A stretch of 64,000 nt of DNA, taken from positions 28,378 to 92,377 of the IMG/VR virus record IMGVR_UViG_3300023192_003818. One strand, 5' to 3'. The position numbers were made by a program, and so were the translations under genes. The notes beneath the pieces are model-generated. The model saw nothing but the letters and a program-made list of their open reading frames with translations, ran no database searches and had not been told where the DNA came from. The stretch is from a virus. Below, one piece after another: positions 28,168 through 51,645 of the stretch (the stretch's first letter is position 1; the number at the start of each line of letters is the position of its first letter).

Positions 28168-28797
28168 TTATAATCTTGAAATATATTGGTTAACATCATC
28201 ATCATCACCAAATCCTAATTCTTTTAATCTCTTTAAATGATATTCATCTACTTCAAACTCAACGGTTTCGCTTGTACCGTGGTGTGGGGTTTGTTCTTCA
28301 ATTTGCATTATATCTTTTTTATTAAATATATTACCTATTTGTAAAAAATAATCATTATAACAAAGTAATTCTATATTTTCTGTTGTATAATTATGTCTAT
28401 TACCATCCTTAAAATGCATTAATAAAGGTATTTTATAATCAAGAACTCTTCTTTCCTTAAATTTACAAACAGCACATTCCTCTAATAAATATCCTTCTTC
28501 TATAAGTTTATATTTTATTTTTGAAGAACTCCATGAAGAAGCATTAACCTTACCCGAAAGTATGTCCTTAAGTTGAATAGAATTATTACCTTTAGTAAAT
28601 TTTGGAACACCTTTACCACCCCAATTTATATGGATTTCATATAAAGATTTACCAGTTTTATTATCAGTATACATTTTGGCATACCTTTTATAATGTTTAT
28701 ATGAAACATGAAGATACCTTGAAGCTGCTAAATTAGATAAAGTACTAGCTTGGGCAGCAACAATCATTTCTTTACTCAAAGGTTTGACTCTTGGCAT
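28168..28797 (-). CDS. HNH-like zinc-binding protein with N-terminal DNA-binding region
   Basis: CAVC...LLMHFKDGNRHNYTTENIELLCYN. Confidence 0.6.
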   Translation of the reverse strand: MPRVKPLSKEMIVAAQASTLSNLAASRYLHVSYKHYKRYAKMYTDNKTGKSLYEIHINWGGKGVPKFTKGNNSIQLKDILSGKVNASSWSSSKIKYKLIEEGYLLEECAVCKFKERRVLDYKIPLLMHFKDGNRHNYTTENIELLCYNDYFLQIGNIFNKKDIMQIEEQTPHHGTSETVEFEVDEYHLKRLKELGFGDDDDVNQYISRL

Positions 28798-36101: not shown

Positions 36102-36560
36102 TTAAGGTAAAAGATCTATATAACTTAATGCATCCATAAAATCGTGTTCTTTAAAGTGCTTAAGAGTACTCATATCCATTCTTTTTGTATAATATTCACC
36201 TTTTTTACCAGGTATAGGATATTTTTCTTTTTCTTCATCTAAAACATCTATAACTTTTGTTGCCCCCCACCTCCAATTATCTCTTGAAGTCCCATCAGCA
36301 AATACCATACCTTTTTCAAAATTATTTATTGTTGTGGGTATCCAAATTTTACCATCTTCATCTTCATCCATTAAAGATTTATATAGTTCAGGCAGAATTT
36401 CAAATTGTTTTTCAAAAAATTCAGAATCTTTTACCATTAAAGTGTTTGTAAAAAACCCACAACCATAACAAAGGTAAGTTTTTAAATCTAAGGTAACTTC
36501 ATTTATATAACAACAATCTCCACCACATCTCCCACATTTTTCTAATTTATCTGTTTTCAT
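36102..36560 (-). CDS. Zinc-ribbon hypothetical protein
   Basis: CGRC...CYGC. Confidence 0.65.
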   Translation of the reverse strand: MKTDKLEKCGRCGGDCCYINEVTLDLKTYLCYGCGFFTNTLMVKDSEFFEKQFEILPELYKSLMDEDEDGKIWIPTTINNFEKGMVFADGTSRDNWRWGATKVIDVLDEEKEKYPIPGKKGEYYTKRMDMSTLKHFKEHDFMDALSYIDLLP

Positions 36561-37354
36561 ATTTTTTTAAGTTTAGGTAAAATTGGCAATTTTAATTTTG
36601 GTAAAGTTAATACAATTTTCTCTGGGAATTCAGGTATAATCTCTTCTAAAACTTGACCTAATAATTCCTTCATTTTCTCCCAACTAAAATTCTTTCTTGA
36701 ATGATATCCTTGCCTTTTACTTTTAATTTTATAATCTTTATAATTTTCAAAAACATCTTTTAAATAATGTCCCACATATTCTGGGTTAGGTTTGAACCAT
36801 TTTGCTTCTTTTATTAACCAATCATTAGTAGCACTCGCATGTATATTCTCCAATTCACCAGTAATCATTGAAGTAAATTTAGGGTTTAAGAAATCCTTAT
36901 GCCCTGACCAATCTGTAGCAATTATAGGTTTATTGGTTAAACTAAATTCTAATAAAGGTCTACAGTAACCCTCACCTTTAGTTAACATAACCATGGCTTT
37001 AATTTTAGAGTGATTATATAATTCATTCATTTCTATGTCTGTAAATTCACCCTCTAAAATATAAATATTGGGTAAATTTTTGGAATTAATTGTTTTTTTA
37101 ATTTTTTGAATTCTACTTAATATTTCATCTCTACTCGCATAAGAAGATGCCCCAACAGAACATTTTAATATAAGTGCGGGTTTAATTTTTTTATTTTTAA
37201 AAATTTCGTAAAAAGCTTTAACTAGTAACCCAACATTTTTTCTATCATGTCCTAACTTAGCATTTCCTATCCAGTGTCCTACAAAGAGATAAAGGAAATC
37301 TTCGGGGAGAGATTGTATATCAAAATACATTTTATTTTTTTTTACTTCACGCAT
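36557..37354 (-). CDS. GT-B (GT4-like) glycosyltransferase, C-terminal domain ORF
   Basis: YLFVGHW...RKNVG; KGEGYCRPLLEFS...PIIATDWSG. Confidence 0.8.
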   Translation of the reverse strand: MREVKKNKMYFDIQSLPEDFLYLFVGHWIGNAKLGHDRKNVGLLVKAFYEIFKNKKIKPALILKCSVGASSYASRDEILSRIQKIKKTINSKNLPNIYILEGEFTDIEMNELYNHSKIKAMVMLTKGEGYCRPLLEFSLTNKPIIATDWSGHKDFLNPKFTSMITGELENIHASATNDWLIKEAKWFKPNPEYVGHYLKDVFENYKDYKIKSKRQGYHSRKNFSWEKMKELLGQVLEEIIPEFPEKIVLTLPKLKLPILPKLKKI

Positions 37355-37400
37355 ATTTTAAATATTTAACTTAATTCTTATTTAACAATTTCAGAAAAAA

Positions 37401-37928
37401 TTAATCAACCCATTTAATTAGTTGATAAGTATCAAGATTTGCTCCTTCAAATATAACTTTAATAGGTTTTTCTAATTTTAGTTCACCCCTAATTTGATTT
37501 GAAATTTTATTATGTTGTCGATATTTGGAATTTTCAAATGTTTGTTTACTAAAATTAGAAGATACAAAATTATAATCCATTCTATTCATTCCTTGTAACC
37601 ATTCATGTTTACAAATAGTTGATTCAATACCAGCAGTACATCCTATATTAAATTTTCCCATGGGTTTAAATTCTGAGGGAATTGTAATTTGCATCCAAAT
37701 ATCAGGTTTTATTTTTTGGTGTTTGTGGAATAATAAATGATTTAAAAGAAATTTCCATTCATCATTTTCCTTACAAAATCCCCATGAAGTTGAACCCCAA
37801 GGTTGTGCTATTAACTTTACTTCATACTTATCTAATTCTATAATTGCTTTAATAATATCTCTACTACGAGCACCATACCCACTCATAGTATCGAAAGGAG
37901 AGGATATTACAAATAAAGGTTTTTTCAT
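37401..37928 (-). CDS. GT-B glycosyltransferase, N-terminal domain ORF
   Basis: VISSPFDTMSGYGARSRD, TAGIES, ends near the linker FEGANLDTY. Confidence 0.75.
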   Translation of the reverse strand: MKKPLFVISSPFDTMSGYGARSRDIIKAIIELDKYEVKLIAQPWGSTSWGFCKENDEWKFLLNHLLFHKHQKIKPDIWMQITIPSEFKPMGKFNIGCTAGIESTICKHEWLQGMNRMDYNFVSSNFSKQTFENSKYRQHNKISNQIRGELKLEKPIKVIFEGANLDTYQLIKWVD

Positions 37929-37946
37929 TTTTATTATTTATATTTA

Positions 37947-38249
37947 TTACTTTTTATCTATTTTTTTTATTAAATTATTCTCTGTGTGATTTATTTTGTT
38001 GTATTTATCTTGTTTTAAAGGACCAGCACCTCTGTTCATAATACCACCTCTATGAGACATACTATTAAATTTAAAATCAGTATATACTCCTGTTGCTTTG
38101 TAACTTAATGTATATATTTTATCATCTACTTTAAAATCAATGTCACCTCCAGTCTGTTCACATTGTTTTATATGTCTACCTTTTCTTTGTTTTTCTGTTA
38201 GGTAATTCTTTTTAATAAATGTTGCGTTTTCTTTAGTTATTTTGCTCAT
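37947..38249 (-). CDS. Hypothetical protein
   Basis: 100 aa ORF. Confidence 0.5.
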   Translation of the reverse strand: MSKITKENATFIKKNYLTEKQRKGRHIKQCEQTGGDIDFKVDDKIYTLSYKATGVYTDFKFNSMSHRGGIMNRGAGPLKQDKYNKINHTENNLIKKIDKK

Positions 38250-38264
38250 TTCTAAGTATTAATT

Positions 38265-38438
38265 TTAAAGTCCAAATAATGTCTTTACCCTGTTTTTAGT
38301 TGACATTTTCTCACTTTCATCTTTAACATGTTTAATAATTAAATTTTCCACCATTTTATTAATCTTTAACCCCTTATCATTACAATACTCTTTTAACATT
38401 GAATGAACTTCTTCTTTAATAATTAATGATTTTTTCAT
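38265..38438 (-). CDS. Small ribbon-helix-helix-like protein (57 aa)
   Basis: Hand-translated MKKSLIIKEEVHSMLKEYCNDKGLKINKMVENLI; ATATTTATA motif upstream. Confidence 0.55.
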   Translation of the reverse strand: MKKSLIIKEEVHSMLKEYCNDKGLKINKMVENLIIKHVKDESEKMSTKNRVKTLFGL

Positions 38439-38486
38439 TTTATTATAAATATAGGAAAGTATACAAAGATATACCTTCCTTTTATT

Positions 38487-39419
38487 TTAATAAATAAGAG
38501 AATGATTTAAAAATTTTCCCCTATATTCATTAGCATTTATTAATTCATACTTTTCTCGGGGTTTCCAAGTGCTAAATAATTCATCAAAAGATTCAATAAT
38601 TCTTTCTCCTTGAATTTTTGATGTAAATCCTGCTTCTTTTGACATAGCCCATTCTCTTCCTTTTAATCCTATTCTTTTACGTTCCTTATTACTTAATTTA
38701 TAAATTTCTTTTAAAATTTCAGTAACATCTTCCCATTTACACCTATCATCAAAAATATAAGGGGTGGGGGGTGACCCTTGAATTGATCTACTAGTAGGAT
38801 ATACAGGGAAAGCCCATTCTCCATGTTGTTTATAAGTTCCTCTATGGTTTGATGGTATTTCTTTTGAAGGAGTATACCATTTACCTTTTTTATCTATAAA
38901 TCTCATTTGGTCTTGCATTCCCCCTGTAACATTTGCTATAAAAGGAGTTCCACTTAACATAGCTTCAGTAAGAGTTAATCCCCAACCTTCATTTGAAGTT
39001 ATTAGTATTTGAACATCTGTTAAATTATAGAGATAATTTAATTGTTTTTGAGGTATTTTGGTTAATGAAAATATTACATTTTCACTATATTCTTCTCCAA
39101 ATAAATATTCTCTTACTTTCTCTAAATCCGTCCCAGCATTCGTTATTAATTCAGTATGAAGAATTAAATAACAATGTTTTGATTTTTCTTTAGGCAATGA
39201 ATCTAAAAATACCCTAAAAGCCAACATTGTATCTGGAATCTGTTTTCTTCTAATATTACGGGAATTAAAAAATACAATAAATTCAGGGGTTTTATCTTTA
39301 AATATAGTTTTTTTAAATTCCATTAATCCTTTATCATTTTTATCTAAAGGTTTATATACCTCCTCTGAAAGCCCATGAGGTATATATTTAAGGAGTATTG
39401 GAGTTGTTCTGTTTTTCAT
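38487..39419 (-). CDS. GT-B (GT4-like) glycosyltransferase, C-terminal part
   Basis: IPHGL, FNSRNIRRKQ, SNEGWGLTLTEAMLSGTPFIANVTGG. Confidence 0.8.
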   Translation of the reverse strand: MKNRTTPILLKYIPHGLSEEVYKPLDKNDKGLMEFKKTIFKDKTPEFIVFFNSRNIRRKQIPDTMLAFRVFLDSLPKEKSKHCYLILHTELITNAGTDLEKVREYLFGEEYSENVIFSLTKIPQKQLNYLYNLTDVQILITSNEGWGLTLTEAMLSGTPFIANVTGGMQDQMRFIDKKGKWYTPSKEIPSNHRGTYKQHGEWAFPVYPTSRSIQGSPPTPYIFDDRCKWEDVTEILKEIYKLSNKERKRIGLKGREWAMSKEAGFTSKIQGERIIESFDELFSTWKPREKYELINANEYRGKFLNHSLIY

Positions 39420-39984
39420 TTTTTATCTAAATCAATAAAATCTACCCCTTGCATTTCCAAACATAGTTTGTGTATGTTATGGGTTTGTTTACTTATACCC
39501 ATTAATAAATCACAAGATTCATAGTAGGCCCCGTTAAAGGCAGGGGAAGGTCCATTATCCCAAACTGAGAGGTAAGTAATAGGTATTTTCTTTCTAATCT
39601 CATGTTCCATATTAAATATCCAACCAAAATATCTAGGATCTGTTACTAGCATAATCGCATTAGGTTTCTCTATATTAATTAATTGTCTTAATATTTGGGG
39701 GTTTCCATAACCCTCTACAGGATATTGGATAACTGAAGAATCAGTAAGACCTGTTTCTTTATTTACATCTTGACTTAAATCTAATCTTTTATTTTTTTGA
39801 GGATGATTTATGGCTCCAGCCAAATTTACCCAGTTAAAATGTTGAGCCGTATGTAAAATTATTTCTTTTGCAACTGTTGCTACTCCTGACTTTACTCTAA
39901 TTAAATATCGTCACAAATGAGCAATATCTTTTTTCGATATTTTTGCTCAATGTGACGAAACTTTGATTTTTGAATATTAGGCAT
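39416..39984 (-). pseudogene. GT-B glycosyltransferase N-terminal part, interrupted by a 5-nt insertion (39899..39903)
   Basis: ATG at 39984 reads MPNIQ...KKILLICDDI* ; removing TAATT gives ...CDDIRVKSGVATVAKE...WVNLAGAINHP, joining track ORF 39416..39823. Confidence 0.75.
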
Positions 39985-40024
39985 ATTTACTTATTATCTA
40001 TTTAATTTTAATTTTTTTATTATT

Positions 40025-40216
40025 CTACTCATCTTTATAATCAATGTTTGTTTGATTCATTATCCTTTTTCGAAATTCTTCATCGGTTAAAAACAAATAA
40101 ATTGCCCTATCAGATAGCTTCTGAAAAGAGAATTTCATTCTTACACATTCAATTTTAAAAGGGTCCCATAGATTTATATCTATTTTTACACTTGTTAATT
40201 TTTTTTCATTTACCAT
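40025..40216 (-). CDS. Small RHH-like DNA-binding protein
   Basis: KLTSVKID..LW..FK..C......FQKL; ATATTTATA motif upstream. Confidence 0.55.
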   Translation of the reverse strand: MVNEKKLTSVKIDINLWDPFKIECVRMKFSFQKLSDRAIYLFLTDEEFRKRIMNQTNIDYKDE

Positions 40217-40269
40217 AATTTATATTTTATATCTTTATATACTTATAAATATTATTAAAACATAAAAAT

Positions 40270-41244
40270 CTATGCGATTTTTAATAACTTTAATAACTTA
40301 GGATTTTTAGGACAATTAACTTCATCAAATTTCCAAGGACAAAATCTACAACTCCATTCTGATATATTCTTTTTATAATGTTGTTCAATAATTTTACCAT
40401 TTGGTTCAAAACATCTTTTAATAAAATCATTTACTATTTTTAATGAAAAATTAATACTTGTTTTTCCAGAAGGAGGAACAAATATTTGTATCCTCTTTTG
40501 AACAAAGTCACAATTTTCATATAATTTTCTTTTAACTATAAAAAATTCTATTTCTATATTTTCAATTGGAAAATCATATAATTTAGAAAAAAAATACTTA
40601 TATAAAATTAATTGGCTTCTTACCCCTTTATCATTTTTTTTCTTTTTATTCCAAGTAGTTTTTGATGTCTTTATGTCGATTATCTTAATGGTATTTGTAG
40701 GTTCATGGTACATAACAATATCAAGATACCCCACAAATACCACGTTAGAATACGTTTTAATCGGCGTAATTTGTATTGGCATTTCACAACCTATTAAATA
40801 CCAACCTTTTTTATTAAAATAAACACCTTTCTTTTTTTTAAAATATTTTAATATTTCAACTCCATCATCATATGCTTCTCTTAATTCTTCTGGGGTTGAA
40901 AAATGACCTTTATTTTTTTTATATCCTGTTTGGTATTCTCTTAAAAGTATTTCTTTAAAATAATAATCTAATTCAATTTTATCAGCTTCTACACCAGTTG
41001 TTTCATACATTGTATTTAAATAATGTTGAACAGTTTTATGTATAGCTGTTCCGAATATTGAATGAATATTGGAAATAAAAGGTTTATTTCTATCTTTGTA
41101 TCTTAATGCCCACTGTTTATTACAGTTTTGGAACATATTAATTTGAGATATAGAAATTACTTTTTGGTAAGTAAAATCTATAGGAGGTGGTGGGTTATTC
41201 CTTATAAATTTAACTATATTTGGTATTTTTTTCTTTTTAGGCAA
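40270..41244 (-). CDS. PD-(D/E)XK nuclease (RecB/Cas4-like)
   Basis: S.SQ...FQNC, FGTAIH, GCEM, GYLDIV, IIDIKTS, SQL..Y, C-terminal CRFCPW..C. Confidence 0.85.
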   Translation of the reverse strand: MPKKKKIPNIVKFIRNNPPPPIDFTYQKVISISQINMFQNCNKQWALRYKDRNKPFISNIHSIFGTAIHKTVQHYLNTMYETTGVEADKIELDYYFKEILLREYQTGYKKNKGHFSTPEELREAYDDGVEILKYFKKKKGVYFNKKGWYLIGCEMPIQITPIKTYSNVVFVGYLDIVMYHEPTNTIKIIDIKTSKTTWNKKKKNDKGVRSQLILYKYFFSKLYDFPIENIEIEFFIVKRKLYENCDFVQKRIQIFVPPSGKTSINFSLKIVNDFIKRCFEPNGKIIEQHYKKNISEWSCRFCPWKFDEVNCPKNPKLLKLLKIA

Positions 41245-41339
41245 ATTTATAACATTTTACTTAGCTTATTTCTATTCCCAATTTCATCTTTATAGTTAAA
41301 ACTTTCCGCTACGATAAATATAATAAAGATTTAATGATT

Positions 41340-41846
41340 TTATACCTTCCACTTTTCTCTTTTAACAAGTAAAGATATTATTCCATAAATAGAAATATCA
41401 AGAAAATTATCCTCAATACTTTCATTAATCTCTTCTTTTTTATTACTTATTAAATTTAATAACCTTTGAACTTTATCATTTAACCTTATTACTAACCCAA
41501 ATAATGAATTATATTTTTCTTTTTCTGTTGATAAATTAGTCCCTAATGTTATGTTATTAGGACCATAATTTAATTGTTTTTCTGCAAATAATTCATATTG
41601 TTCTTTTTGAATTTTTAGAAATTGTTTAGATAATTCAGGGTATTTAGCTTCAAAGGTTTGAGTTTTCAACCTTTCCTCTATAGAAGAGGGTTTTTCTTTA
41701 TCGTGTATAAACTTAGGATTATTACCTTTTTCTATTAAATCCTCATATTTGTCTTGTGAATTCATATATTTTATTGTTTTGTAAAAATTATCTACCAAAA
41801 ATCTATTATTAATGGAACTTGGATGTTCAAATTCATCAAATTTCAT
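41340..41846 (-). CDS. DUF1599 / nucleotide-modification-associated domain 1 protein
   Basis: LFAEKQLNYG, IRLNDKVQRL, ESIEDNFLDISIYGII. Confidence 0.75.
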   Translation of the reverse strand: MKFDEFEHPSSINNRFLVDNFYKTIKYMNSQDKYEDLIEKGNNPKFIHDKEKPSSIEERLKTQTFEAKYPELSKQFLKIQKEQYELFAEKQLNYGPNNITLGTNLSTEKEKYNSLFGLVIRLNDKVQRLLNLISNKKEEINESIEDNFLDISIYGIISLLVKREKWKV

Positions 41847-42289
41847 TTCATTAATTGTGTTATTTCTTTTTTTTCTAATCCAAACCCCATTAAATATCCT
41901 TTTATTTCATCTTTATGTATAAGCTCTAAATACTCATCAGCTTCTTTTGATGATATTTCCCATAAATCTGTAAAATATTTTATTAAATCTTTATTGCGTT
42001 TTTTAGTATTGGATTTAATGTATTTATTCCATTTATTATTTATTGGTATAAATTCTCTATATATTGTATATATTTCCTTTTTGTTTTGAGGTAATATTTT
42101 TTGAACATGATTAACAATTTCTATATAGTCAAGATTCATACTTAAAATACGGTGGATTGAATATGAATTAAAATTTTTATCCCAATCTTCCTGTGTAAAA
42201 GAATTAGGTTCTGATTTAATGTAATTAATTTGTTTCAACCAATCCCATAAAGAATTGGTTTTATTTTTCAAAATTCCCTTTTCCTTCAT
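41843..42289 (-). CDS. Clamp loader small subunit (T4 gp62-like)
   Basis: LWDWLKQI, FNSYSIHRILS...IV; downstream of the clamp loader large subunit. Confidence 0.65.
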   Translation of the reverse strand: MKEKGILKNKTNSLWDWLKQINYIKSEPNSFTQEDWDKNFNSYSIHRILSMNLDYIEIVNHVQKILPQNKKEIYTIYREFIPINNKWNKYIKSNTKKRNKDLIKYFTDLWEISSKEADEYLELIHKDEIKGYLMGFGLEKKEITQLMK

Positions 42290-42298
42290 ATGTAAACA

Positions 42299-42541
42299 TT
42301 ATATTAATTCATCTTTAAGTTCCCCCCTTAATTCAGGAATTAAAGTATCTTTCAATATTTTAAATGTTTTGGGGTCATAAAATACTGGTACTGGTACATA
42401 AGCATCCTCTGAAGTTCCAGCAACAAATTTTGATATTTTTCTTAATACAAACCCTTGTGTAAATAAATTCTTACCGGATGAATTTAATACTTTAATTGTG
42501 TTTTTTAAATCTATTTGTTGTTGTGTTTTGGGGTTATCCAT
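42299..42541 (-). CDS. Hypothetical protein
   Basis: 80 aa ORF within the replication operon. Confidence 0.65.
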   Translation of the reverse strand: MDNPKTQQQIDLKNTIKVLNSSGKNLFTQGFVLRKISKFVAGTSEDAYVPVPVFYDPKTFKILKDTLIPELRGELKDELI

Positions 42542-42547
42542 TTTTTA

Positions 42548-43483
42548 TTATTTATTATTTATTATATTTTGTAAACAACTTATAAGGTTTATTTCTTTAT
42601 CAATTCTAAATTGAGATTGATATAAATGTTCGTTTATTAAAATTGCCACTGTTCCTTCTTGACCTGGTAAATATTCTGTTGCTTTATCAAATAAAAATCT
42701 ATAAAACATTTCAAAATCTATTACATTAGAATCTGCAATAATTTGCCTAATTTTCATTAAGTGAGGTTTTTTTAATTGTAATTCTTTTAAAACCTCAAAC
42801 ATATAATTTTGTGAAATAAATATTGAAGGATCTAATTCCATTTTTCCATCAATAATACTTGATTGAATAGTATTAATCATTTTCCTCATATCAGGATAAT
42901 ATTGATTAACTATTTTATTAAAGTCTGATATTTTATATTTTATTCCTTCATCTTGACATATATTAAACAAACGTCTTCCTACTTCCACTTTACTTGGAGG
43001 GATTAACTTTAATGTTTGACATCTCGATTGAATGGGGTCTATAATTTTTTCAATATAATTACAAGTTAATATAAACCTTGTACTACGTGAAAATTCCTCA
43101 ATTAAATTTCTTAATGACGCTTGTGCCATTATTGTTAAAAAATCTGCTTCATCCAAAATAACTACTTTTAAAGGATGAAAGGATGCCATACTTGCAAAAC
43201 TCTTTACCTTATCTCTAATAGTTTCAATACCTCTTTCATCTGAAGCATTTATATAAATAGAATCACAATTCAAAGTATTAACTATAATTTTTGCTAAAGT
43301 AGTTTTACCGGTACCTGAGGGACCATAAAATAAATAATTTTGAATATCATTTTGGTTTAACTGTTTTTGGATAGATGATTTAAGAGTCTCATTGCCTACA
43401 AAATTTTCTAAATCTAAAGGCCTATATAATTCATTTAATATAGTTTGTTCTGTTTGAGAACTATTTTTCTCCAATATTTTCAT
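42548..43483 (-). CDS. Clamp loader large subunit (T4 gp44/RFC-like AAA+)
   Basis: [34 protein letters not shown]. Confidence 0.92.
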
Positions 43484-43491
43484 AAACTTTA

Positions 43492-43803
43492 TTACTTTTC
43501 CCCTATATCTCCATAGATTGAATATTTTTTAGGGATTTTCATTTCAATAATTTCACTTTCAAGTTTTGATGTATAACCTTCCATATCAATATCTTCAACC
43601 ATAACAAAAATTTTACCTTTTGAAGGGCTTACTTTAAAGTCTCCTTTATATTTGTATATTTTATAAAATGCTTCTAAAACATCAGTTAATGAAGAGTATA
43701 CCTCTTTATGTTCTGATACTTTGGTTCCTTCGATAACTTCAATCTTCCATTTATCACCAGGAGGTATTCTTACTGCTATTTGTTTTTCTTTATAAGTTGC
43801 CAT
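43492..43803 (-). CDS. Hypothetical protein
   Basis: 103 aa ORF. Confidence 0.6.
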
Positions 43804-45401
43804 TATATCATTCCCATCATAGAGTTTATACCTTCTGATGATTCTTTATTTACAATTGAACATTCAGTTAATAATATTATTCCTGCAACAGATGAAGCAT
43901 TTTCAATAGCTGTTCTACAAACTTTTGTAGGGTCTATAATTCCTTCATCTAACATATTTACATATTTTTTAGTTTTAAGGTTATAACCTTCCCATACATC
44001 ATTTTTTTCAAATACTGTTGAACATATAATTTGTGCTTCTGTTTTACTATATCCAGCATTTTTTAATATTTGAATAAAAGGTTGAGCACAAGCTTTAAAT
44101 ACAATTTCCCCACCTATTGTTGAAATATCTATATTTTTACGAGCTTGTAATAATGCTACACCACCTCCAGGAATTATTCCTTCTTGTATTGCTGATCTTG
44201 TTGCATTAACAGCATCATCAATTCTATCTTTTTTCTCTCCTATTTCAGTTTCAGTTCTTCCACCTACATGAATTATTACCACACCTCCAGCAAAATGTGC
44301 TAATCTTTCTTGTAATTTTTCAGTTTCAAAAGGAGTTTTTGAACTATCAACTTGAACTTTTAAATCTGATATTCTCTTTTCTATATCTTTAACATTCCCC
44401 TTACCATCAACAATTGTAGTTTGATCTTTACTTACATTAATACTCCTAGCTTCTCCAAACCAATCCCTATCAAATTCTTCAAAAGTCATTCCTTTTTCTT
44501 TACTAAAAACTTTACCACCAGTTAATATTGCTATATCCTCAAGTATTAATTTTCTTCTTTCTCCAAAATCTGGGGATTTTACAGCACATACTTTTAATGT
44601 TCCCCTTATTTTATTCACAATACAAGTAGCTAATGCTTCTCCTGTAATATCCTCTGCTATTATTAATAATGAAGTCTCTTGTTGTGATACTTCTTCAAAT
44701 AAAGGTACTAAATCTTTAACATTATTAAGTTTACCATCTACTATTAAAATTTTAGGGTTTTTCAAAATAGAAATCATTTTTTCTTCATTGGTTACAAAAT
44801 GGTGAGATTGATATCCTCTATCAAACTGTATTCCTTCTACTGTTTCTAAACTATCTTCGTTACCTGATGTTTCTTCAACATGAATAATTCCTTCACTTCC
44901 TACTTTATCAATAGCAGTAAATATTAATTTACCCGCTTTTGTGTCATTATTTGAAGCGATTATAGCAATTTGTTCTACTTGAGATTCTTCTGAAATATCT
45001 TGGGAAATTATTGACAATTGTTCAACTACATTTTCCACTGCTTTATTAATATCTCTCTTAATTTGAACAGCATTTTCATTTTTATCTAAACTTGCTAACC
45101 CCCTTTTAACCATTTCACTTGCTAATAAAGTTGCAGTAGTTGTACCATCTCCAGCAATGTCTGAAGTTTTGATTGCTGCTTGTTTTATAAGTTGTGCTCC
45201 TAAGTTTACTGTCGGATTTTTAAATTCTATTTCTTTTGCTACTGTTACACCATCTTTAGTACTTTTAATAATTCCCCCTGTTGAAATGATAACATTTCTA
45301 CCATTAGGTCCCAAAGTTGCAACTACGGATTTTGAAAGTTTTCTAACACCTTTCATAATAAGTTTTCTAGAATTACTTCCAAATTTTATTTCTTTACTCA
45401 T
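43803..45401 (-). CDS. groEL: Chaperonin GroEL
   Basis: TLGPNGRNV, TKDGVTVA, AGDGTTTAT, EGIQFDRGY, GIIPGGG, IIDPTKV. Confidence 0.97.
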   Translation of the reverse strand: MSKEIKFGSNSRKLIMKGVRKLSKSVVATLGPNGRNVIISTGGIIKSTKDGVTVAKEIEFKNPTVNLGAQLIKQAAIKTSDIAGDGTTTATLLASEMVKRGLASLDKNENAVQIKRDINKAVENVVEQLSIISQDISEESQVEQIAIIASNNDTKAGKLIFTAIDKVGSEGIIHVEETSGNEDSLETVEGIQFDRGYQSHHFVTNEEKMISILKNPKILIVDGKLNNVKDLVPLFEEVSQQETSLLIIAEDITGEALATCIVNKIRGTLKVCAVKSPDFGERRKLILEDIAILTGGKVFSKEKGMTFEEFDRDWFGEARSINVSKDQTTIVDGKGNVKDIEKRISDLKVQVDSSKTPFETEKLQERLAHFAGGVVIIHVGGRTETEIGEKKDRIDDAVNATRSAIQEGIIPGGGVALLQARKNIDISTIGGEIVFKACAQPFIQILKNAGYSKTEAQIICSTVFEKNDVWEGYNLKTKKYVNMLDEGIIDPTKVCRTAIENASSVAGIILLTECSIVNKESSEGINSMMGMI

Positions 45402-45407
45402 AATTTT

Positions 45408-45701
45408 TTATAATTTTGCTAATATTTCGTTTTCTTTTCCTATATAATATTCTACATCATCATGTTTAAATCTTGTAAAACCCATTGTAGGTAATATCAC
45501 TTTCATCCCAACTTTAAGAGTAGTTTTAATAAAAGTTCCCATTATAGTATAATGGCCAGGACCTACAGATACTATTATCCCAGTTTCATTAAGTTTTTTA
45601 TCAATATCAGGAACAATAATATTTCCTTGTGGTTCAGTAAATTTTGTAGGCTTTACTATAACTGCATTAAATAATGCTTTAACTTTATATTTTACTCCCA
45701 T
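45408..45701 (-). CDS. groES: Co-chaperonin GroES
   Basis: KALFNAVIVKP, GIIVSVGPG, LKVGMKVI, ENEILAK; adjacent to groEL. Confidence 0.92.
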   Translation of the reverse strand: MGVKYKVKALFNAVIVKPTKFTEPQGNIIVPDIDKKLNETGIIVSVGPGHYTIMGTFIKTTLKVGMKVILPTMGFTRFKHDDVEYYIGKENEILAKL

Positions 45702-46050
45702 TTATATATTCTTTTATTTCTGTTTCTATTCTTAATAATCTATTAATTAATTCTTCTAATGATTTTGTATCTCCTTCAGTGAAAATTTTTTCATTTATAA
45801 TTTTAAGTAAGGCTTGTTTTAAATTAGGATAATAGCCCTGTGCTTTACAATATTCAGTTCCTCCTCTTTTGGAACGAAAATGGTCACCGTTAGGTATTAT
45901 TCTTTCATTTACTGTAAAACAATAATCATCTTTAATTATAAAATAAGGTTCTAATAAAGGATCAGTAATGGTTTTAATTGAATTATTTCTTGGCATATAA
46001 CTTGTTTGTGTGTGTGACATTAATATACGAATAATATTGGGATAAGACAA
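45685..46050 (-). CDS. Hypothetical protein
   Basis: 121 aa ORF upstream of groES. Confidence 0.6.
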   Translation of the reverse strand: MSYPNIIRILMSHTQTSYMPRNNSIKTITDPLLEPYFIIKDDYCFTVNERIIPNGDHFRSKRGGTEYCKAQGYYPNLKQALLKIINEKIFTEGDTKSLEELINRLLRIETEIKEYINGSKI

Positions 46051-46116
46051 ATCATTTTATACAATTTTATTATATTTTGTACATTTTTTTCCAAAATAAA
46101 AAAACTACTGCCTTTC

Positions 46117-46181
46117 AGGGTCAAGGGTTCTTACTAAGCAATAGTTTTATAATATGTTTTTTATTAGTAGCCCTTGACCCT
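46117..46181. other. Long intergenic inverted repeat
   Basis: AGGGTCAAGGG (46117..46127) pairs with CCCTTGACCCT (46171..46181), extended by TACTAA/TTAGTA. Confidence 0.75.
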
Positions 46182-46214
46182 ACTATCTTATTATGCATAT
46201 TAAAAAATTTTAAG

Positions 46215-46925
46215 TTATTCACATCTCACCAAATAATATTCTGATTCCATATTCTCATTACTAAAATTTAATTTCATAATACCTAAACTAGATATTTGAA
46301 TTAAGGCCTTATCTGCATCTTTATTTGCTGATAGAATTTCTTTAAATAAATCAGAATTGAATGGTAACTCTAAATTTTTATCTAATATTTCTCCTTCTAT
46401 TTGGTAAGTAACTTTATTAGAATAATTGTCATTAGCTCCAAAAGTAAATATACATAAATTATCTTGTGCCTTAACAATAAAATTATCTTGGTCTAATAAT
46501 GCATTTTTACCCTTAATTAGGTTATTAATATCACTTTCTTCTAAATTTAGGATTATATCATAACCTTCTTTAGGGTCTTTATAATAAGAAGTTGTACCCA
46601 AAACCAATACATCTGCTAATGAATATATTAAATCAAAATTGGCATCAGATATCTTTAATTTACTATAAATATTATGTTTTTTTATAGGGTCAAATAATAA
46701 GTCCCCCATAGTAATATTAATTAATTTTGATAATTTTTCAGTATCATAAATGCCAAGATCTGCATCTTCAAATGGAAAGTTATATAAATGAATTTTGCAT
46801 ACTTTCCCTTTACCCCCTGCATAGACTGTTAAAGTATTATCTTTAATTCTCCATTTTGTCTTTTCATTTAATCCCCCTAAATAATATTTAGATATAAAAG
46901 ATAATATTACATTTTTATTTACCAT
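46215..46925 (-). CDS. Sliding clamp (T4 gp45-like)
   Basis: 236 aa with clamp-like repeats (LGIYD..KL..L; F...FKEIL; G...L.F...Y...); directly after PolB. Confidence 0.75.
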   Translation of the reverse strand: MVNKNVILSFISKYYLGGLNEKTKWRIKDNTLTVYAGGKGKVCKIHLYNFPFEDADLGIYDTEKLSKLINITMGDLLFDPIKKHNIYSKLKISDANFDLIYSLADVLVLGTTSYYKDPKEGYDIILNLEESDINNLIKGKNALLDQDNFIVKAQDNLCIFTFGANDNYSNKVTYQIEGEILDKNLELPFNSDLFKEILSANKDADKALIQISSLGIMKLNFSNENMESEYYLVRCE

Positions 46926-46933
46926 AACTTATT

Positions 46934-47876
46934 TTATATTTCATAGATTTCAAAAACATCTATATGAGGGTTTAAGTTAAATTCCCACCCTATATCTTCC
47001 ATGAATCCTTCTAATTTATTTAATAATATACTCTCAAATACTTTTTTTCTATTAGCATATTTTTCAATAAAATCATTAATTTTATCAGGAATTTTATTAG
47101 ATATATAGGCTATTGATTCTACTTTGTAAGGATTATCATTTAAATAAATCCATTTAATCTTATCTGATGATGTAATATACGAATTTTGTTTATCTAATCC
47201 CCAAAATTTTAATAAATCATTGTATCTTATTGCTGCTTTAACGGAAGCTGATGCTTTTTTCTCAATATTAGTAAATATTTCTCCTGCTCTAGGTTTTCTG
47301 CCAGTATATTTTTTGAGTGTTTTAACTGATGTTGGGTTACCTAATTGTGTTAAAGGAATTTCACCCTTTATTATAGATTTTTTAAATACTTTAATTTGAC
47401 TTATAATCACTTCTTTTTCAACTCCTTTTAATACTTGTTTTAATATTTTTTCAAAAAATTTACCAAATACTGGGGGAAAATTAGATTTTTTAAATTCTAA
47501 TCCTTTAATGTCAACAAAATCTTTTTTAATAATACCATCTTGTTTAGTAATCCATTGAGCATATCTTCTAGTTTTTCTAAAATAAGCCGAACGGATAACA
47601 CATTCAGTTTTCATTTCTAATTTATGTGAATCAAGATTAAAACATTCTTTTGCTAATCTATCATAATCTTTAGTTATAATATCTTGGTATTGTAAAGCAA
47701 CATTTTCTAATACTTCATCTTTTTTTTTCTCACTAAAATTATCAAAATCTTTATATAAAAACTTTAATAAGGGTTCAGCATGAATATAGACTGAGTCGGT
47801 ATCACTAACAATAGGCAACGAAATTTTCGTCGCCTACTTTACATATAAATTCAGGAGTATCTTCCAGGTGTTTCAT
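46934..47876 (-). CDS. polB: Family B DNA polymerase, C-terminal subunit; motif C interrupted by a 4-nt insertion
   Basis: ATG at 47876 reads MKHLEDTPEFICKVGDENFVAYC*; DTDS, KxE, RRYA and KGLE follow in the +1 frame (track ORF 46934..47818, TTG start). Confidence 0.85.
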
Positions 47877-48261
47877 AAATTATTTTATTACTTTTATTTC
47901 TATTTCCAATATATCCAACTTCGTCTGTATTCTTTTTATCTTCTAATTTAGATTTATCCCAACCTCTTAATTCATAGTATTTTTCTTTAGGTTCACCAGT
48001 CCACCCATTTATTCCTTTCTTTGGCAAATAAAACAGGTGAATATAAATAGCAGGAAATCCGGATATTACCATTAATATCATGGCTATAGTTCGGTTAAAC
48101 AAAGCTGAAGCTCCAACTATAATAACTAAAATCAATATAAATTTACCAATTTTTCTAATTTTAGGTGTGTGCTCTTCAAAGTGTCCAAATAGTATGTTTC
48201 CTATTGAATAAATGATACTTACAATAGCAATTTCAAACCAAAACGATTCAATTGACCACAT
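47851..48261 (-). CDS. Membrane protein, bacterial-like
   Basis: Three TM helices; GHFEE.TP...; GINGWTGEPKEKYY. Confidence 0.65.
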   Translation of the reverse strand: MWSIESFWFEIAIVSIIYSIGNILFGHFEEHTPKIRKIGKFILILVIIVGASALFNRTIAMILMVISGFPAIYIHLFYLPKKGINGWTGEPKEKYYELRGWDKSKLEDKKNTDEVGYIGNRNKSNKIIYETPGRYS

Positions 48262-48266
48262 TTTTT

Positions 48267-48575
48267 TTATAATTTTTTCTTACTTAATTCTTCATTATCA
48301 TAATATTTTATGAATAATTCATATCCATCTTCCTCACATTTATTACAAGAATAACCTTTACTTACTGTATTTAATGCTTGGTCATAAACGTATAAATTTT
48401 CTAATTCTTCATTTTCTTCAGGAGTAAATTCAGTAGGATCTTTTTCTAAATTTTTAAACCAATCTTTTCTTCCCCATTTATCGATTAATATTTCCATTTT
48501 TTCTTGGGGGAAAATCATTGGTAAAAAGAGCCATTCATTATCTGTATTTTGTTCACAAAATTGACATTTATTCAT
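48267..48575 (-). CDS. CxxC...CxxC zinc-binding hypothetical protein
   Basis: CQFC and YDQALNTV...CNKC. Confidence 0.6.
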   Translation of the reverse strand: MNKCQFCEQNTDNEWLFLPMIFPQEKMEILIDKWGRKDWFKNLEKDPTEFTPEENEELENLYVYDQALNTVSKGYSCNKCEEDGYELFIKYYDNEELSKKKL

Positions 48576-48657
48576 TTTTTATATATTTTTAATTTCACAA
48601 TTCATATTATTCATCTTATTTCTCTCTTTTTTCTTATATTGAGGTACATATTTTTCT

Positions 48658-49050
48658 TTATTTAATTATACAATCTCTACACTCCCAACTTGGACCAACT
48701 GTATTTAAAAGTTGGTCATAAAAGTAAGCATTATCAACTTTTTTAGCTCCAAATTTTTCTTCTAATTTAGTTTGGATTTCTTCACTCCAATTATTATTAT
48801 TATTTTTCATTAAAACATCTTGATAATCTAAAATTTTATTTAATTCTTTATCTTTCATTCCAATATATTCACAGGCATCTATTCTTTCTTCAATCATTGC
48901 TCTAAAAATTTTAACTAATTTTTGCCCTTCAAAATTACCAACTAAAGGGTCTCCTTCTTTGCCAAAAGGTTTTAAATCATTAATATGAACTTGACATCTT
49001 TCACATTTTCTATCTGTTGGGGGTGGGTTAATATAAATTTTTTTAGTCAT
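48658..49050 (-). CDS. CxxC...CxxC zinc-binding hypothetical protein
   Basis: CERC and YDQLLNTV...CRDC. Confidence 0.6.
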   Translation of the reverse strand: MTKKIYINPPPTDRKCERCQVHINDLKPFGKEGDPLVGNFEGQKLVKIFRAMIEERIDACEYIGMKDKELNKILDYQDVLMKNNNNNWSEEIQTKLEEKFGAKKVDNAYFYDQLLNTVGPSWECRDCIIK

Positions 49051-49148
49051 AACTTATTTATTTTAAGGTTTTATAAAATTTTGTAAATTTCCAAATTTGA
49101 GTCCATACCCCACATTTTTCATTAAATCTTTTTTATTTAAATCCCCCA

Positions 49149-50906
49149 TTATATATTTAATTTTACTTTACCTTCACAGGGTAGAGATTTCATAAATTCT
49201 TCCTTAAATTTGGGGTCTTTCATAATTTTATTTATGTGATTATTTGCACATAATGCACTTTGTTGAATTATAGACCACCCTGTCAATGTAATGGCTTCAC
49301 TTAATATAGCTTTATTTTTTCCATATCTAAATGAAGGCAAAGAACTTGCCCCATACAAACTATTTAGTAAAATTTTAAATGAGTTTTGAATCATAAAATA
49401 ATGATCTCCTTTTTCCTCATCTCCTGCTTTATAAGCTTCTTTCATTAGTCTTTTATATTCAACTCTTTCGTTAAACCATTCTTCTAAAACTATAGCCATT
49501 ACTGATTTCTTATCGGTTCTAAACATAACTCCATTTGCAGATATTGATAATTTTTTACCTATAATAAATTTTATTAGACTAGAAACTTTCATTTTTACTC
49601 TTTTGTTTTGGTCGCTATTTTCAATAACTAATTCCTCATCAGGGTCTCTCTCTTTTAAATCATTAAGCCCCAATCTATTATTACGGTCATTATCATCAAT
49701 AATCCTAGCTACTAATGTTTCTCTTCCTATATTAAGAGAAATAATAATAAAAGGATATTGAGATGTTAAATCTTCATCAAACATATATTTATAAAGACCT
49801 GCTTTTGGGCAAAACAAATAACCTCCTGCATATCCTTTTTTTGATATTTGATTTCTTTCTCTTGCAGGAGGAATTATTCCTTGAGATAATAAATAAGCTG
49901 AAATAGCTCCATCATGTGTTTTACTACTTGCATAAACTTCACTATAATTATGTTTTCCTTTATGAGATATATTAATTGTTAAGTCTATATATTGTAATTT
50001 TTCATCCAATTTTTTTAATATTTCAACATCAATAAAATTATAATTAATAAATTTATGTATATCTTCTTTAAATAAATCATCAAGATTTCCATCATATTCA
50101 ATTTTACCTAATCCTGCATATTTTTTACCAATAGCATCTAAGGTATAGCTTGGTTCATCTCTCCAATAATATTTTTTATGTAATCTATAATAATCTAAAG
50201 ATTCAACCCCTGCGATTTGAACATAAGTGTCCTTATTGAACCACCAATCATTATTTTTTTTACATTTAACTATCCCAATTGGGGATAACATATTTGCCCA
50301 ATCTTCTCCTAATACATTACAAATTCTATAATATAGGTAAGGTATATCAAAAAAACAACCATTATAAGTAACTAAAATGTCAGGATCAATCTCTCTAAAT
50401 CTTTCAATAAATTTTGATAATAATTCTTCTTCATCTTTACAAGGTATAATCTCTTTATTTTTAAATTTGGTATATTTTAAATTTAATTGCGTATCCAAAA
50501 CCAAAATCCCCCATTTATCAAGTTGTTTATCCCACCATGCAATTGAAGTAATTTTTTTAGGGGCATTAGATATTTCAACTTCTGTAATCTCCTCTAGCAT
50601 TTCACACTCAATATCAAAAAATAATATTCTATGTGTAGTAGAAGGGGTACTATCTATCCCATATCTTTCAATTAGAAATTTCTGATATGGAGCCATATCA
50701 TGAAAATGTAATAAAGGATTTTGTTTATCCCATTTCCATATCTTTTTTAAATTTTCATCTTTAAACCCTTTAAATTCAGATTCTGAAGGAGAACATTCAA
50801 TATAAGCTTGATTATACCAAGTTATTTTTTTATAACTTTTATCAGTCCAAAGATGAATATTGAATTTATTCTTACCTATTTGTTCGGCAAAACATTTAAT
50901 ATACAA
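49149..50906 (-). CDS. polB: Family B DNA polymerase, N-terminal subunit (3'-5' exonuclease, motifs A and B)
   Basis: FDIEC (ExoI), YNG..FDIPY (ExoII), YN..D (ExoIII), DEDLTSQYP (motif A), QNSFKILLNSLYG (motif B); ends before motif C. TTG start. Confidence 0.92.
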   Translation of the reverse strand: MYIKCFAEQIGKNKFNIHLWTDKSYKKITWYNQAYIECSPSESEFKGFKDENLKKIWKWDKQNPLLHFHDMAPYQKFLIERYGIDSTPSTTHRILFFDIECEMLEEITEVEISNAPKKITSIAWWDKQLDKWGILVLDTQLNLKYTKFKNKEIIPCKDEEELLSKFIERFREIDPDILVTYNGCFFDIPYLYYRICNVLGEDWANMLSPIGIVKCKKNNDWWFNKDTYVQIAGVESLDYYRLHKKYYWRDEPSYTLDAIGKKYAGLGKIEYDGNLDDLFKEDIHKFINYNFIDVEILKKLDEKLQYIDLTINISHKGKHNYSEVYASSKTHDGAISAYLLSQGIIPPARERNQISKKGYAGGYLFCPKAGLYKYMFDEDLTSQYPFIIISLNIGRETLVARIIDDNDRNNRLGLNDLKERDPDEELVIENSDQNKRVKMKVSSLIKFIIGKKLSISANGVMFRTDKKSVMAIVLEEWFNERVEYKRLMKEAYKAGDEEKGDHYFMIQNSFKILLNSLYGASSLPSFRYGKNKAILSEAITLTGWSIIQQSALCANNHINKIMKDPKFKEEFMKSLPCEGKVKLNI

Positions 50907-51009
50907 AACCTTTTATTTTATTCATATTATTGTATCTTTTTTACTTCTATTTTTATTTAATGTTAAAGGTTGAGAATTTATATAATGAAAAAAAACTATG
51001 TTGCATAGG

Positions 51010-51645
51010 TTAAATAAAAGATAGAGGTTTATGGCAGTTTTGCAGTTCATTATTAGAAAAAAATTGAATTAAATCAGGTTTTACATATTCAATACTTTTC
51101 ATACTTTTCCTATCAGAACTTCTATATACTATCCATTTATCATTTACTTTTTCATAATGACATTTATGTCCTTTTTCTCTACTTCTAACTTCTACTGTTT
51201 TTTTAGCTATTTCTTCAGTATTACAAGATTTTGATAAATTTGAAAATTGAATTTCTTTATATATATTATTAAATTTATCTTTTAACCCATAAGCTAATAT
51301 TCCTGCACATAAAACATACATAATGTCCCCAAAAGCATCACTTATTTTAATTATATCATTATTTTCATATGCTTCTTTATATTCATCTATTTCCTCTAAA
51401 AGAAAATCATAAATAAATTTTTTCTCAAATTCAGGGATATCAAGGGTTGGAGTAGTGTTGTTTAACTTTCCAAAGACATCATTAAATTCTTCAACTTCTT
51501 CAACAAAAGGAACAATTTTTAAACATTTATCATGCGTTTTCTCAAAAGCTCGTTTTAAATCTCTTTTCAATTGAATTGTCGGTGTAATATAATGAGAAAT
51601 AATTTCTCCTACCTCATCATATAATTCTCTTAATTTTCTTAACAT
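51010..51645 (-). CDS. MazG-like / PRA-PH-like nucleoside triphosphate pyrophosphohydrolase
   Basis: VEEFNDVF, LLEEIDEY..A, ISDAFGDIMYV, EI..SNLSK, GK.MKS..Y.KP. Confidence 0.8.
   Translation of the reverse strand: MLRKLRELYDEVGEIISHYITPTIQLKRDLKRAFEKTHDKCLKIVPFVEEVEEFNDVFGKLNNTTPTLDIPEFEKKFIYDFLLEEIDEYKEAYENNDIIKISDAFGDIMYVLCAGILAYGLKDKFNNIYKEIQFSNLSKSCNTEEIAKKTVEVRSREKGHKCHYEKVNDKWIVYRSSDRKSMKSIEYVKPDLIQFFSNNELQNCHKPLSFI

Follow-up and report, generated by a model that had tools for sequence, protein, structure and literature searches.

The window analysed here is a stretch of 64,000 nucleotides (nt) from the IMG/VR contig of an uncultured marine phage (record IMGVR_UViG_3300023192_003818, positions 28,378 to 92,377), and two genes on its minus strand, one for a GT-B glycosyltransferase (GT) and one for the C-terminal part of a family B DNA polymerase (PolB-C), are each broken near the start by a few extra nucleotides that begin with an in-frame stop codon. 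The source is a single 106.6-kb virus contig of 25–27% G+C, which carries nearly all of its genes on the minus strand and has a gene map that is coherent under genetic code table 11. Matches to Pfam and PHROG give it a T4-type family B DNA polymerase (PolB, the only replicative polymerase detected in the contig), GroEL/GroES, queuosine-precursor genes, and several glycosyltransferases. Its cultured relatives are distant, the GT being 49% identical to that of Flavobacterium phage vB_FspM_immuto and PolB 33–35% identical to that of Microcystis phage Mel-JY01. Relatives in IMG/VR number 231 contigs for GT and 572 for PolB-C, and 80 related loci per gene were fetched for comparison with gapless alleles, 79 of the 80 being readable for PolB-C. 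Below, G000 denotes the full contig of the window and G001–G014, L003, and L235 denote related contigs, with L228 the same contig as G012 and L230 the same as G014.

Two interrupted genes in the window

The first open-reading frame (ORF) of the GT gene, ORF1, ends in the codons GAC GAT ATT, followed by the five nucleotides TAATT, after which the homologous frame restarts at AGA GTA. In 79 of the 80 related GT loci, this position lies within an uninterrupted CDDIRVHSG motif, and deleting TAATT from the window gives the homologous sequence CDDI/RVHSG residue for residue, where the slash marks the gap. ORF1 is homologous to the N-termini of uninterrupted GTs, shares 85% protein identity with ORF1 of L003, and is conserved at the nucleotide level far above the remainder of the gene. 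The polymerase gene has the same kind of break. Its first ORF, whose homologous counterpart in 79 uninterrupted PolB-C genes is a start reading MKHLE(D/E)TP, ends in TAT TGT, and following the four nucleotides TAGT, the frame restarts at GAT ACC GAC TCA, the DTDS of polymerase motif C. All 79 readable relatives have an uninterrupted AY(V/M/S/C)DTDS at this site, and deleting TAGT gives AYC/DTDS, again residue for residue. Since the gapless loci read through in one frame, the extra bases amount to exactly 5 nt in GT and 4 nt in PolB.

The preliminary description of this DNA, which was made from the letters alone, had reported these breaks as ATT-TA-ATT with an in-frame TAA and GT-TA-GT with an in-frame TAG, both lying 23–27 codons after the start and inside a conserved motif. 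The sequences and coordinates hold on the minus strand, with the GT break after codon 27 and the PolB break after codon 23, and so does the observation that the GT codon before the stop recurs exactly 5 nt later while the PolB triplets (TGT and AGT) agree at two of three bases. In what follows, the last sense codon before a gap is called the take-off codon and the last triplet of the gap region, directly before the resume codon, the landing triplet.

Table 1. Features at the two interrupted genes of the window, and gap alleles found in related contigs (gap in parentheses between the flanking codons)
Feature	Location	Strand	Description
GT C-terminal domain ORF, 310 amino acids	38487..39419	-	PF00534 1.5e-09; phrog_2170; starts at an ATGA stop/start overlap
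GT ORF2, N-terminal Rossmann domain	39419..39898	-	from AGA (39898-39896) to TGA (39418-39416)
GT coding gap TAATT	39899..39903	-	in-frame TAA plus TT; landing triplet ATT, identical to the take-off codon
GT ORF1	39904..39984	-	27 codons, ATG at 39984 to take-off ATT (39906-39904); first beta-strand region ...KKILLICDDI
GT 5' hairpin	39908..39958	-	three-tier, 19 base pairs (bp); 3' end 1 nt before the take-off codon; -23.2 kcal/mol, z -7.1
Relic of endonuclease 3' end	39985..40023	-	85% nucleotide identity to the end of the 312-amino-acid ORF; abuts/overlaps the GT start; TAG in the relic frame
PolB-C ORF2	46934..47803	-	from GAT (DTDSVYIH, motif C) through the thumb to the stop; phrog_262 577-842 of 856, 1.2e-39; PF20286
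PolB coding gap TAGT	47804..47807	-	in-frame TAG plus T; landing AGT, take-off TGT, 2/3 bases match
PolB-C ORF1	47808..47876	-	23 codons, ATG at 47876 to take-off TGT (47810-47808); ...ENFVAYC, strand into motif C
PolB 5' hairpin	47810..47838	-	13 bp, 3-nt loop; final base doubles as base 1 of the take-off codon; -17.8 kcal/mol, z -5.56
Three small ORFs between PolB-N and PolB-C	47851..49050	-	two paralogous CxxC proteins (130 and 102 amino acids), one 136-amino-acid membrane protein
PolB-N	49149..50906	-	exonuclease domain plus palm motifs A and B; PF03104 3e-23; PF00136 1e-16; phrog_262 11-568 of 856
PolB gap ACA(TGATCT)GAT	G003		also in two more metagenome contigs
PolB gap ACG(TAAGCA)GAT	G004		
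PolB gap ACG(TGACA)GAC	G010		
PolB gap ACG(TAGCT)GAT	L235		
QueD gap TGC(TGATAGT)CGA	G003		after codon 27, inside the Cys-x3-His motif

Gap alleles and their hairpins in related phages

The GT gap is not peculiar to the window. An identical TAATT stands at the same codon in eight further diverged IMG/VR contigs with many differences in the flanks, and the contigs with this gap derive from at least seven IMG datasets and have co-varying flanks. A pattern search on the N-terminal and upstream sequence that was independent of the gap found seven contigs, all of which carry TAATT. Downstream, the frame is open for 455–460 codons in the relatives, and among gap-bearing lineages it has a saturated synonymous divergence (dS 0.9–2.4) with a nonsynonymous divergence (dN) of 0.2–0.38 and a dN/dS of about 0.1–0.25. 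Purifying selection thus acts on the GT frame after the gap.

Relatives that share the GT gap include carriers of gaps in PolB, which lie two codons past the site in the window, between the Thr and second Asp codons of motif C (Thr-type alleles), and one of them, G003, also has a gap in QueD. Motif C has no gap in G001, G011, and others, and QueD is intact in G010 and G011. Removal of the gap is as exact in these genes as in the window, giving AYSDT/DS at the Thr-type PolB sites and THC/RF(L/V)HGYG in QueD. Seven distinct gap alleles are therefore available, and in all seven an in-frame stop (TAA, TAG, or TGA) directly follows the last homologous sense codon, the site lies 23–27 codons from the start, and the take-off and landing triplets have the same middle base (ATT to ATT, ACG to ACA, ACG to GCA, ACG to GCT, ACA to TCT, TGT to AGT, and TGC to AGT). 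The match is full in GT, and in G010 the landing triplet is a synonymous codon (ACG/ACA). No other stops occur in the 285–460 codons downstream of the gaps. The PolB gaps of 5, 5, 6, and 6 nt that follow the same Thr codon all restart at the same Asp codon, which a fixed frameshift cannot explain. The signature of a short duplication around TA, which the preliminary description had taken to be common to both breaks, is true of the two alleles in the window and is absent from the other five; it is incidental.

Scanning of the genome and its relatives for further breaks, as had been proposed, yielded the stop-first gaps in relatives described above. No further gap was found in the 106.6-kb contig, which was scanned by homology against two large gapless relatives and ab initio for mini-ORFs that precede a long ORF; nearly all other candidates proved to be gene starts of the ordinary overlapping kind, with an ATG, and several candidate N-terminal breaks from weak alignments were merely variable N-termini. 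Two irregularities of other kinds were noted in relatives. A conserved ORF of 68 amino acids in L228 (11306-11509, plus strand) holds an in-frame TGA (ACA TGA GGT) with no change in length, at a position that is a variable sense codon in relatives; no strong hairpin was seen there by eye (the region was not folded), and the TGA could be a point mutation, a readthrough site, or an error. In L230 (about 1900-1930, plus strand), the frame of a MazG-like gene is shifted by 1 nt within an A4T3 run, and no such shift is present in the near-identical G005 and G013. Unlike the stop-first gaps, this is a homopolymer error or mutation of the ordinary kind.

Every gap allele has a strong hairpin that ends 0–1 nt from the take-off codon or overlaps it, with folding energies of -17.4 to -29.6 kcal/mol and z-scores of -4.5 to -7.4. 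The hairpins of the Thr-type PolB alleles reach -22.8 to -27.1 kcal/mol and that of QueD -29.6 kcal/mol (z -4.6), and for the PolB hairpin of the window none of 200 shuffled sequences was as stable. The consensus structure over six GT alleles has an energy of -24 kcal/mol and includes three pairs in which both bases have changed in a compensatory way, in two cases at the expense of the amino-acid sequence in G004. The PolB gap alleles likewise have a consensus structure of -25.6 kcal/mol with compensatory pairs, compared to -3.7 kcal/mol for the gapless PolB alleles, and the 70 gapless PolB alleles of the main clade average -5.1 kcal/mol individually with a minimum of -9.4. In the gapless GT allele of G010 the hairpin is absent (-11.9 kcal/mol, z -1.6). 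When all 50-nt segments of a genome are ranked by stability, gap-associated hairpins come first in G010, first and second in G003, and second in G004. In the window's genome, they are within the top 10 of 21,311 such segments, the PolB hairpin among them, the other top segments being mostly intergenic terminators or a tRNA. Hairpin, stop-first gap, and a start-proximal position of 23–27 codons are thus the features common to the gap alleles.

Two pairs of nearly identical contigs differ in the gap and its hairpin. G010 and G011 are 99.65% identical over 6 kb, and in motif C G010 differs by a 5-nt gap and five consecutive synonymous third-position changes, all from A/T to G/C and all making stem pairs (-26 vs -8 kcal/mol). 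G001, which has the GT gap, and G010, which does not, are 98.8% identical, and a differing patch of about 95 nt across the GT start holds the hairpin arms and the gap. Among the lineages with the GT gap, the approximately 120 nt leading up to it are far more conserved than either flank. Together with the near-isogenic pairs, this indicates that the device behaves as a cassette under selection at the nucleotide level that is exchanged by short-patch recombination.

Proposed stop-hop bypass and competing explanations

Given the strong hairpin before each break and the same kind of break in related phages, ribosomes most likely slide over the extra bases, in a much shortened version of the hop known from phage T4 gene 60. 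As read from these sequences, the breaks would be sites of programmed translational bypass of 4–7 nt, driven by the 5' hairpin with the ribosomal A site occupied by a stop codon, and we assign this explanation a probability of about 0.7. Short ribosomal bypass by stop-hopping had been one of the mechanisms offered in the preliminary description, and it is the one that the conservation of the breaks, the purifying selection after the gap, the restoration of one frame by gaps of 4–7 nt, the middle-base match, and the selected hairpin favor. In this mechanism, a ribosome would translate the short first ORF of 23–27 codons and pause once the take-off codon occupies the P site and the stop codon the A site. 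At that point the hairpin's 3' arm would still be in the mRNA channel, and its re-pairing with the 5' arm that has emerged behind the ribosome would pull the mRNA forward. The peptidyl-tRNA would then leave its codon, the mRNA would slide by 4–7 nt, and the tRNA would re-pair with an identical or two-of-three triplet, so that decoding would resume at the next codon and yield a single uninterrupted protein, the same as in gapless relatives. With a site this near the start, the 5' arm of the hairpin may stay free of trailing ribosomes, and failed attempts would also be cheap. That the ribosome, rather than a process at the RNA level, removes the gap, and that the hairpin is the driver, is what we infer from this pattern.

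Bypassing has been established experimentally in T4 gene 60, in yeast mitochondria (PMC5009743), and in a Streptomyces phage terminase (PMC10732093). The gene 60 5' stem-loop is a proposed forward driver, and monosome bypassing there exceeds polysome bypassing (bioRxiv 10.1101/2024.12.09.627546). The alleles described here resemble gene 60 in several respects. A stop codon directly follows the take-off codon, and decoding, if the proposal is correct, resumes to give one protein; a 5' stem-loop stands ahead of the take-off codon, and the hairpins here are significant, co-varying, and confined to gap alleles; and the gene is split and rewritten at its 5' end, with gap and gapless alleles forming a mosaic. 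They differ from gene 60 in the size of the gap (4–7 nt as opposed to 50 nt, or 20 nt in one Aeromonas clade), which leaves no room for an in-gap A-site stem-loop or GAG element, and in a landing triplet that often matches at only two of three positions, whereas matched codons matter in gene 60 and in synthetic stop-hops. Unlike gene 60, they also have no evident common nascent-peptide motif and no sequence homology to the gene 60 cassette, and the genes affected are GT, PolB, and QueD rather than a topoisomerase. The first ORFs of GT, PolB-C, and QueD have no obvious motif in common, and the basic KYRKK in GT ORF1 has a counterpart, RKK, in gapless relatives as well.

Another counterpart is the large terminase of Streptomyces phage Hau3 and related prophages, with very short non-coding inserts (10 and 7 nt) in an essential phage gene, a slow A-site codon, and nearby mRNA structure (PMC10732093). 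It is the one published case in which short bypass has experimental backing: for the 10-nt insert of Hau3, mass spectrometry in Escherichia coli showed bypass and not +1 frameshifting once UUA had been replaced by UAA (PMC10732093). In that system the A site naturally holds UUA, a rare Leu codon, a regulatory function has been proposed, and an internal Shine-Dalgarno sequence is invoked, whereas the alleles studied here have a natural stop in the A site, a gap of 4–7 nt, a position 23–27 codons from the start, and a hairpin ending at take-off. Natural stop-hops were not known to the authors of a review in which shorter natural counterparts of bypassing are described as long presumed (PMC5009743). 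In synthetic E. coli stop-hops, in which matched codons flank a stop, the peptidyl-tRNA leaves its codon at the stop and re-pairs with the matching codon a few nucleotides on (cited in PMC5009743 and bioRxiv 10.1101/2024.12.09.627546), a description that the GT sequence ATT-TAA-TT fits. Those events are low-level, take place in reporters that have no stimulators, and are in frame (+6). Here, by contrast, hopping would have to be efficient enough for an essential polymerase, hops of +4, +5, and +7 would shift the frame while +6 would keep it, and the hairpin is selected. The bypassing elements (byps) of Magnusiomyces capitatus mitochondria are similar in being many short inserts corrected at translation, with an unusable A-site codon and two-of-three landing (PMC5009743). 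They differ in being longer, in belonging to a mitochondrial system with relaxed decoding, and in a reportedly large independence of context, whereas the hairpin context here is selected and the translation system is bacterial.

Several points weigh against this interpretation. The case for bypass is drawn from sequence comparison. In gene 60 the hairpin lies 9 nt upstream of the take-off codon, while here it adjoins that codon, so its role as driver is an extrapolation from gene 60. The landing triplet of the window's PolB matches the take-off codon at two of three positions only, as in four other alleles, one of which matches by the middle base only. Among the contigs reached, the window alone has the TAGT allele: no second contig with it was found in an exact-pattern search of IMG/VR, which gave three unrelated high-GC chance matches, and a scan of a single metagenome gave no window-like TAGT allele. 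No homing endonuclease was found beside the PolB or QueD gaps among the local ORFs examined, and the closest cultured relatives have Flavobacterium and Microcystis as hosts.

Among the competing explanations, conventional recoding that adds residues is unlikely. It would call for a -1 or +2 shift in GT (yielding DDI-LI-R or DDI-I-R), a +1 shift at TGT TAG T in PolB (yielding YC-S-DTDS), and, for the 6-nt alleles, readthrough of the stop. Stops in the A site classically stimulate +1 shifts, hairpins could in principle stimulate shifting as well as hopping, and a +5 hop is indistinguishable by sequence from a +2 shift followed by decoding of ATT. However, there is no slippery heptamer, GAT ATT TAA and TAT TGT TAG T permit no +1 or -1 re-pairing, and recoding would have to invoke three different mechanisms to account for gaps of 4, 5, 6, and 7 nt with one architecture. 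The products would gain one or two residues at motif C (within its invariant DTD hairpin), in the CDDIRVHSG loop, and in the Cys-His motif of QueD, and such an insertion occurs in 0 of about 160 fetched homologous loci.

Removal of the gap from the RNA, or a failure to transcribe it, through hairpin-guided cleavage and ligation, editing, or forward slipping of the RNA polymerase, appears quite improbable. A hairpin followed by the gap end after 7–10 nt does resemble the geometry of an intrinsic terminator, and U-rich bases follow the hairpin in the GT allele and in the window's PolB allele, but such U-richness is missing from the QueD allele and from the PolB alleles of the Thr type. A process of this kind would have no need for a stop as the first triplet, found in seven of seven alleles, or for a landing triplet with a matching middle base, and no intron or ribozyme family was found in 38000-51500. 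We know of no RNA excision of 4–7 nt of this kind in bacteria or phages.

That the two ORFs yield separate polypeptides, through termination followed by re-initiation or through an independent start, with the peptide of 23–27 residues assembling non-covalently, is very improbable in our judgment, even though split enzymes are tolerated in this phage group (572 relatives encode PolB as two ORFs, and each of the window's GT-B genes is divided at its domain linker). Re-initiation after short ORFs is known in bacteria, and the downstream PolB frame has a TTG 12 nt before the resume codon. The triplets directly before the resume codons (AGT, ACA, GCT, TCT, GCA, and AGT) are, on the other hand, not start codons, the Thr-type break falls between two catalytic Asp codons, and separate products would leave unexplained both the hairpin that ends at the last sense codon and the continuous chain in gap-free relatives.

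Dead genes in defective genomes, or errors of sequencing or assembly, are barely credible as the source of the gaps. The lack of an independent second contig for TAGT would suit this explanation, and metagenome contigs do hold errors, such as the homopolymer frameshift of G014. A systematic assembly artefact, which had been raised at the outset, does not survive the finding of the same GT gap with co-varying flanks in contigs of at least seven IMG datasets; the true error in G014 looks different, being a 1-nt homopolymer indel. Further evidence against dead genes comes from the purifying selection after the gap and the long stop-free frames downstream of it, from hairpins built through synonymous and compensatory changes, and from the position of PolB as the sole replicative polymerase found in the contig. 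Neither an alternative genetic code, under which several stops remain after each break, nor a group I/II intron or an intein at either break (or a group I intron at the PolB split), given inserts of 4–5 nt with stops and no match to an Rfam intron family (E up to 1) in 38000-51500, could be retained.

Homing endonuclease linkage, neighboring genes, and implications

In five relatives (G002, G003, G005, G013, and G014), an endonuclease ORF of 312 amino acids ends 8 nt inside GT ORF1. It consists of three treble-clef/DUF723 modules with a nuclease-like C-terminus and matches phrog_559 ('HNH endonuclease', 4e-70), phrog_9084 ('homing endonuclease'), PF14311, and PF05265. Relics of its last 15–32 codons are present in G012, G004, and G001, in the gapless G010 and G011, and in the window. 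The preliminary description had suggested looking for full-length elements at the same sites in related contigs, and the mobile element linked to the GT gap is this homing-endonuclease cassette and not a TA transposon. The footprint of a TA-targeting element is not supported, the gaps TGACA, TAGCT, TGATCT, TAAGCA, and TGATAGT having no TA-flanked duplication. At the PolB gap, the local ORFs comprise one of 87 amino acids in both gap-bearing and gapless relatives, with G004 having none, and the upstream neighbor of the QueD gap is only a thioredoxin-like ORF.

The arrangement at GT recalls T4 mobA and gene 60, where the endonuclease ORF overlaps a rewritten gene start (bioRxiv 10.1101/2022.08.31.505936). 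In GT only, as in that case, an endonuclease ORF overlaps the gene start out of frame, by 8 nt here as compared to 8–32 nt for MobA; the endonuclease itself, of the DUF723/treble-clef phrog_559 type, is not shown to be MobA-like. The GT cassette, meaning the rewritten gene start with its hairpin and gap, probably came in with the homing-endonuclease gene, as with mobA and gene 60, and the endonuclease was later deleted from the lineage of the window. The gap may protect the gene against the endonuclease.

The polymerase is also divided at a second place. A split between PolB-N and PolB-C just before motif C is common to 572 IMG/VR contigs, with PolB-N ending in KLNI and PolB-C beginning with MKHLE(D/E)TP, and the ORFs between the halves vary among relatives, some contigs having none. 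The filling seen in the window occurs in this genome only and consists of three ORFs without a match to a Pfam or PHROG family. Those of 130 amino acids (48658-49050) and 102 amino acids (48267-48575) have paired CxxC motifs and a common YDQ(L/A)LNTV motif, and the membrane protein ORF lies at 47851-48261. A 63-nt piece of PolB-C (window 47474-47536) is repeated with 98% identity in an unrelated ORF at G000 105108-105170, near the contig end.

The junction between the N- and C-terminal domains of GT (39416-39424, minus strand) reads AAA TGA AAA and has a hop-like geometry, an A6 run, and an ATGA overlap. It sits in a lineage-specific linker about 11 residues longer than that of relatives, and folding gave no hairpin ahead of it (z -0.6). 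With no hairpin, an ATGA overlap, and a lineage-specific linker, it was rejected as a further instance of the same device and probably represents a genuine split between domains (or slippage on the A run) rather than a hop. A second GT-B gene (36557-37928, minus strand), which is one piece of 423 amino acids in relatives, is present in the window as ORFs of 175 and 265 amino acids that are about 46 nt apart at the interdomain linker, the second with its own ATG, and this reads as a domain split. Elsewhere in the window, a GroES-like gene (103 amino acids) and a GroEL gene (532 amino acids, PF00118 2.6e-59) form a pair at 43492-45401 on the minus strand that is kept in relatives. GC-rich, terminator-like hairpins followed by a conserved TTCGTATATTnACG motif occur at many intergenic sites, for example at G000 55336, 48061, and 2001. 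A promoter-like TTCGTATATTnACG motif had been noted in the preliminary description, and the same motif is found in two relatives, G003 and G004; these sites probably make up a family of phage promoters.

A broader proposal, which we put forward tentatively and rate at somewhat less than even odds, is that these sites represent a portable and minimal recoding module, made up of a strong hairpin that ends at a sense codon followed by a stop, about 25 codons into the gene. Ribosomes would slide 4–7 nt to a two-of-three triplet often enough to supply an essential polymerase. By means of such a module, endonuclease cassettes of marine, probably Bacteroidota-infecting, phages could break their own target sites in catalytic motifs without killing the gene, and the module could persist and spread by short-patch recombination after loss of the endonuclease.

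If bypass is the correct explanation, these phages would offer a natural allelic series in which a single catalytic motif holds gaps of 4, 5, 5, 6, and 6 nt and two other genes have sites of their own, along with near-isogenic genome pairs that differ in the presence of the gap. The series suggests a simple, testable rule, namely the combination of a 5' hairpin that adjoins the take-off codon with an A-site stop and a tolerant landing, and it would provide direct material on whether re-folding of the mRNA behind the ribosome drives forward sliding. It would also tie short bypass sites to the biology of homing endonucleases, and essential virome genes that appear 'frameshifted' in this way should not be annotated as pseudogenes.

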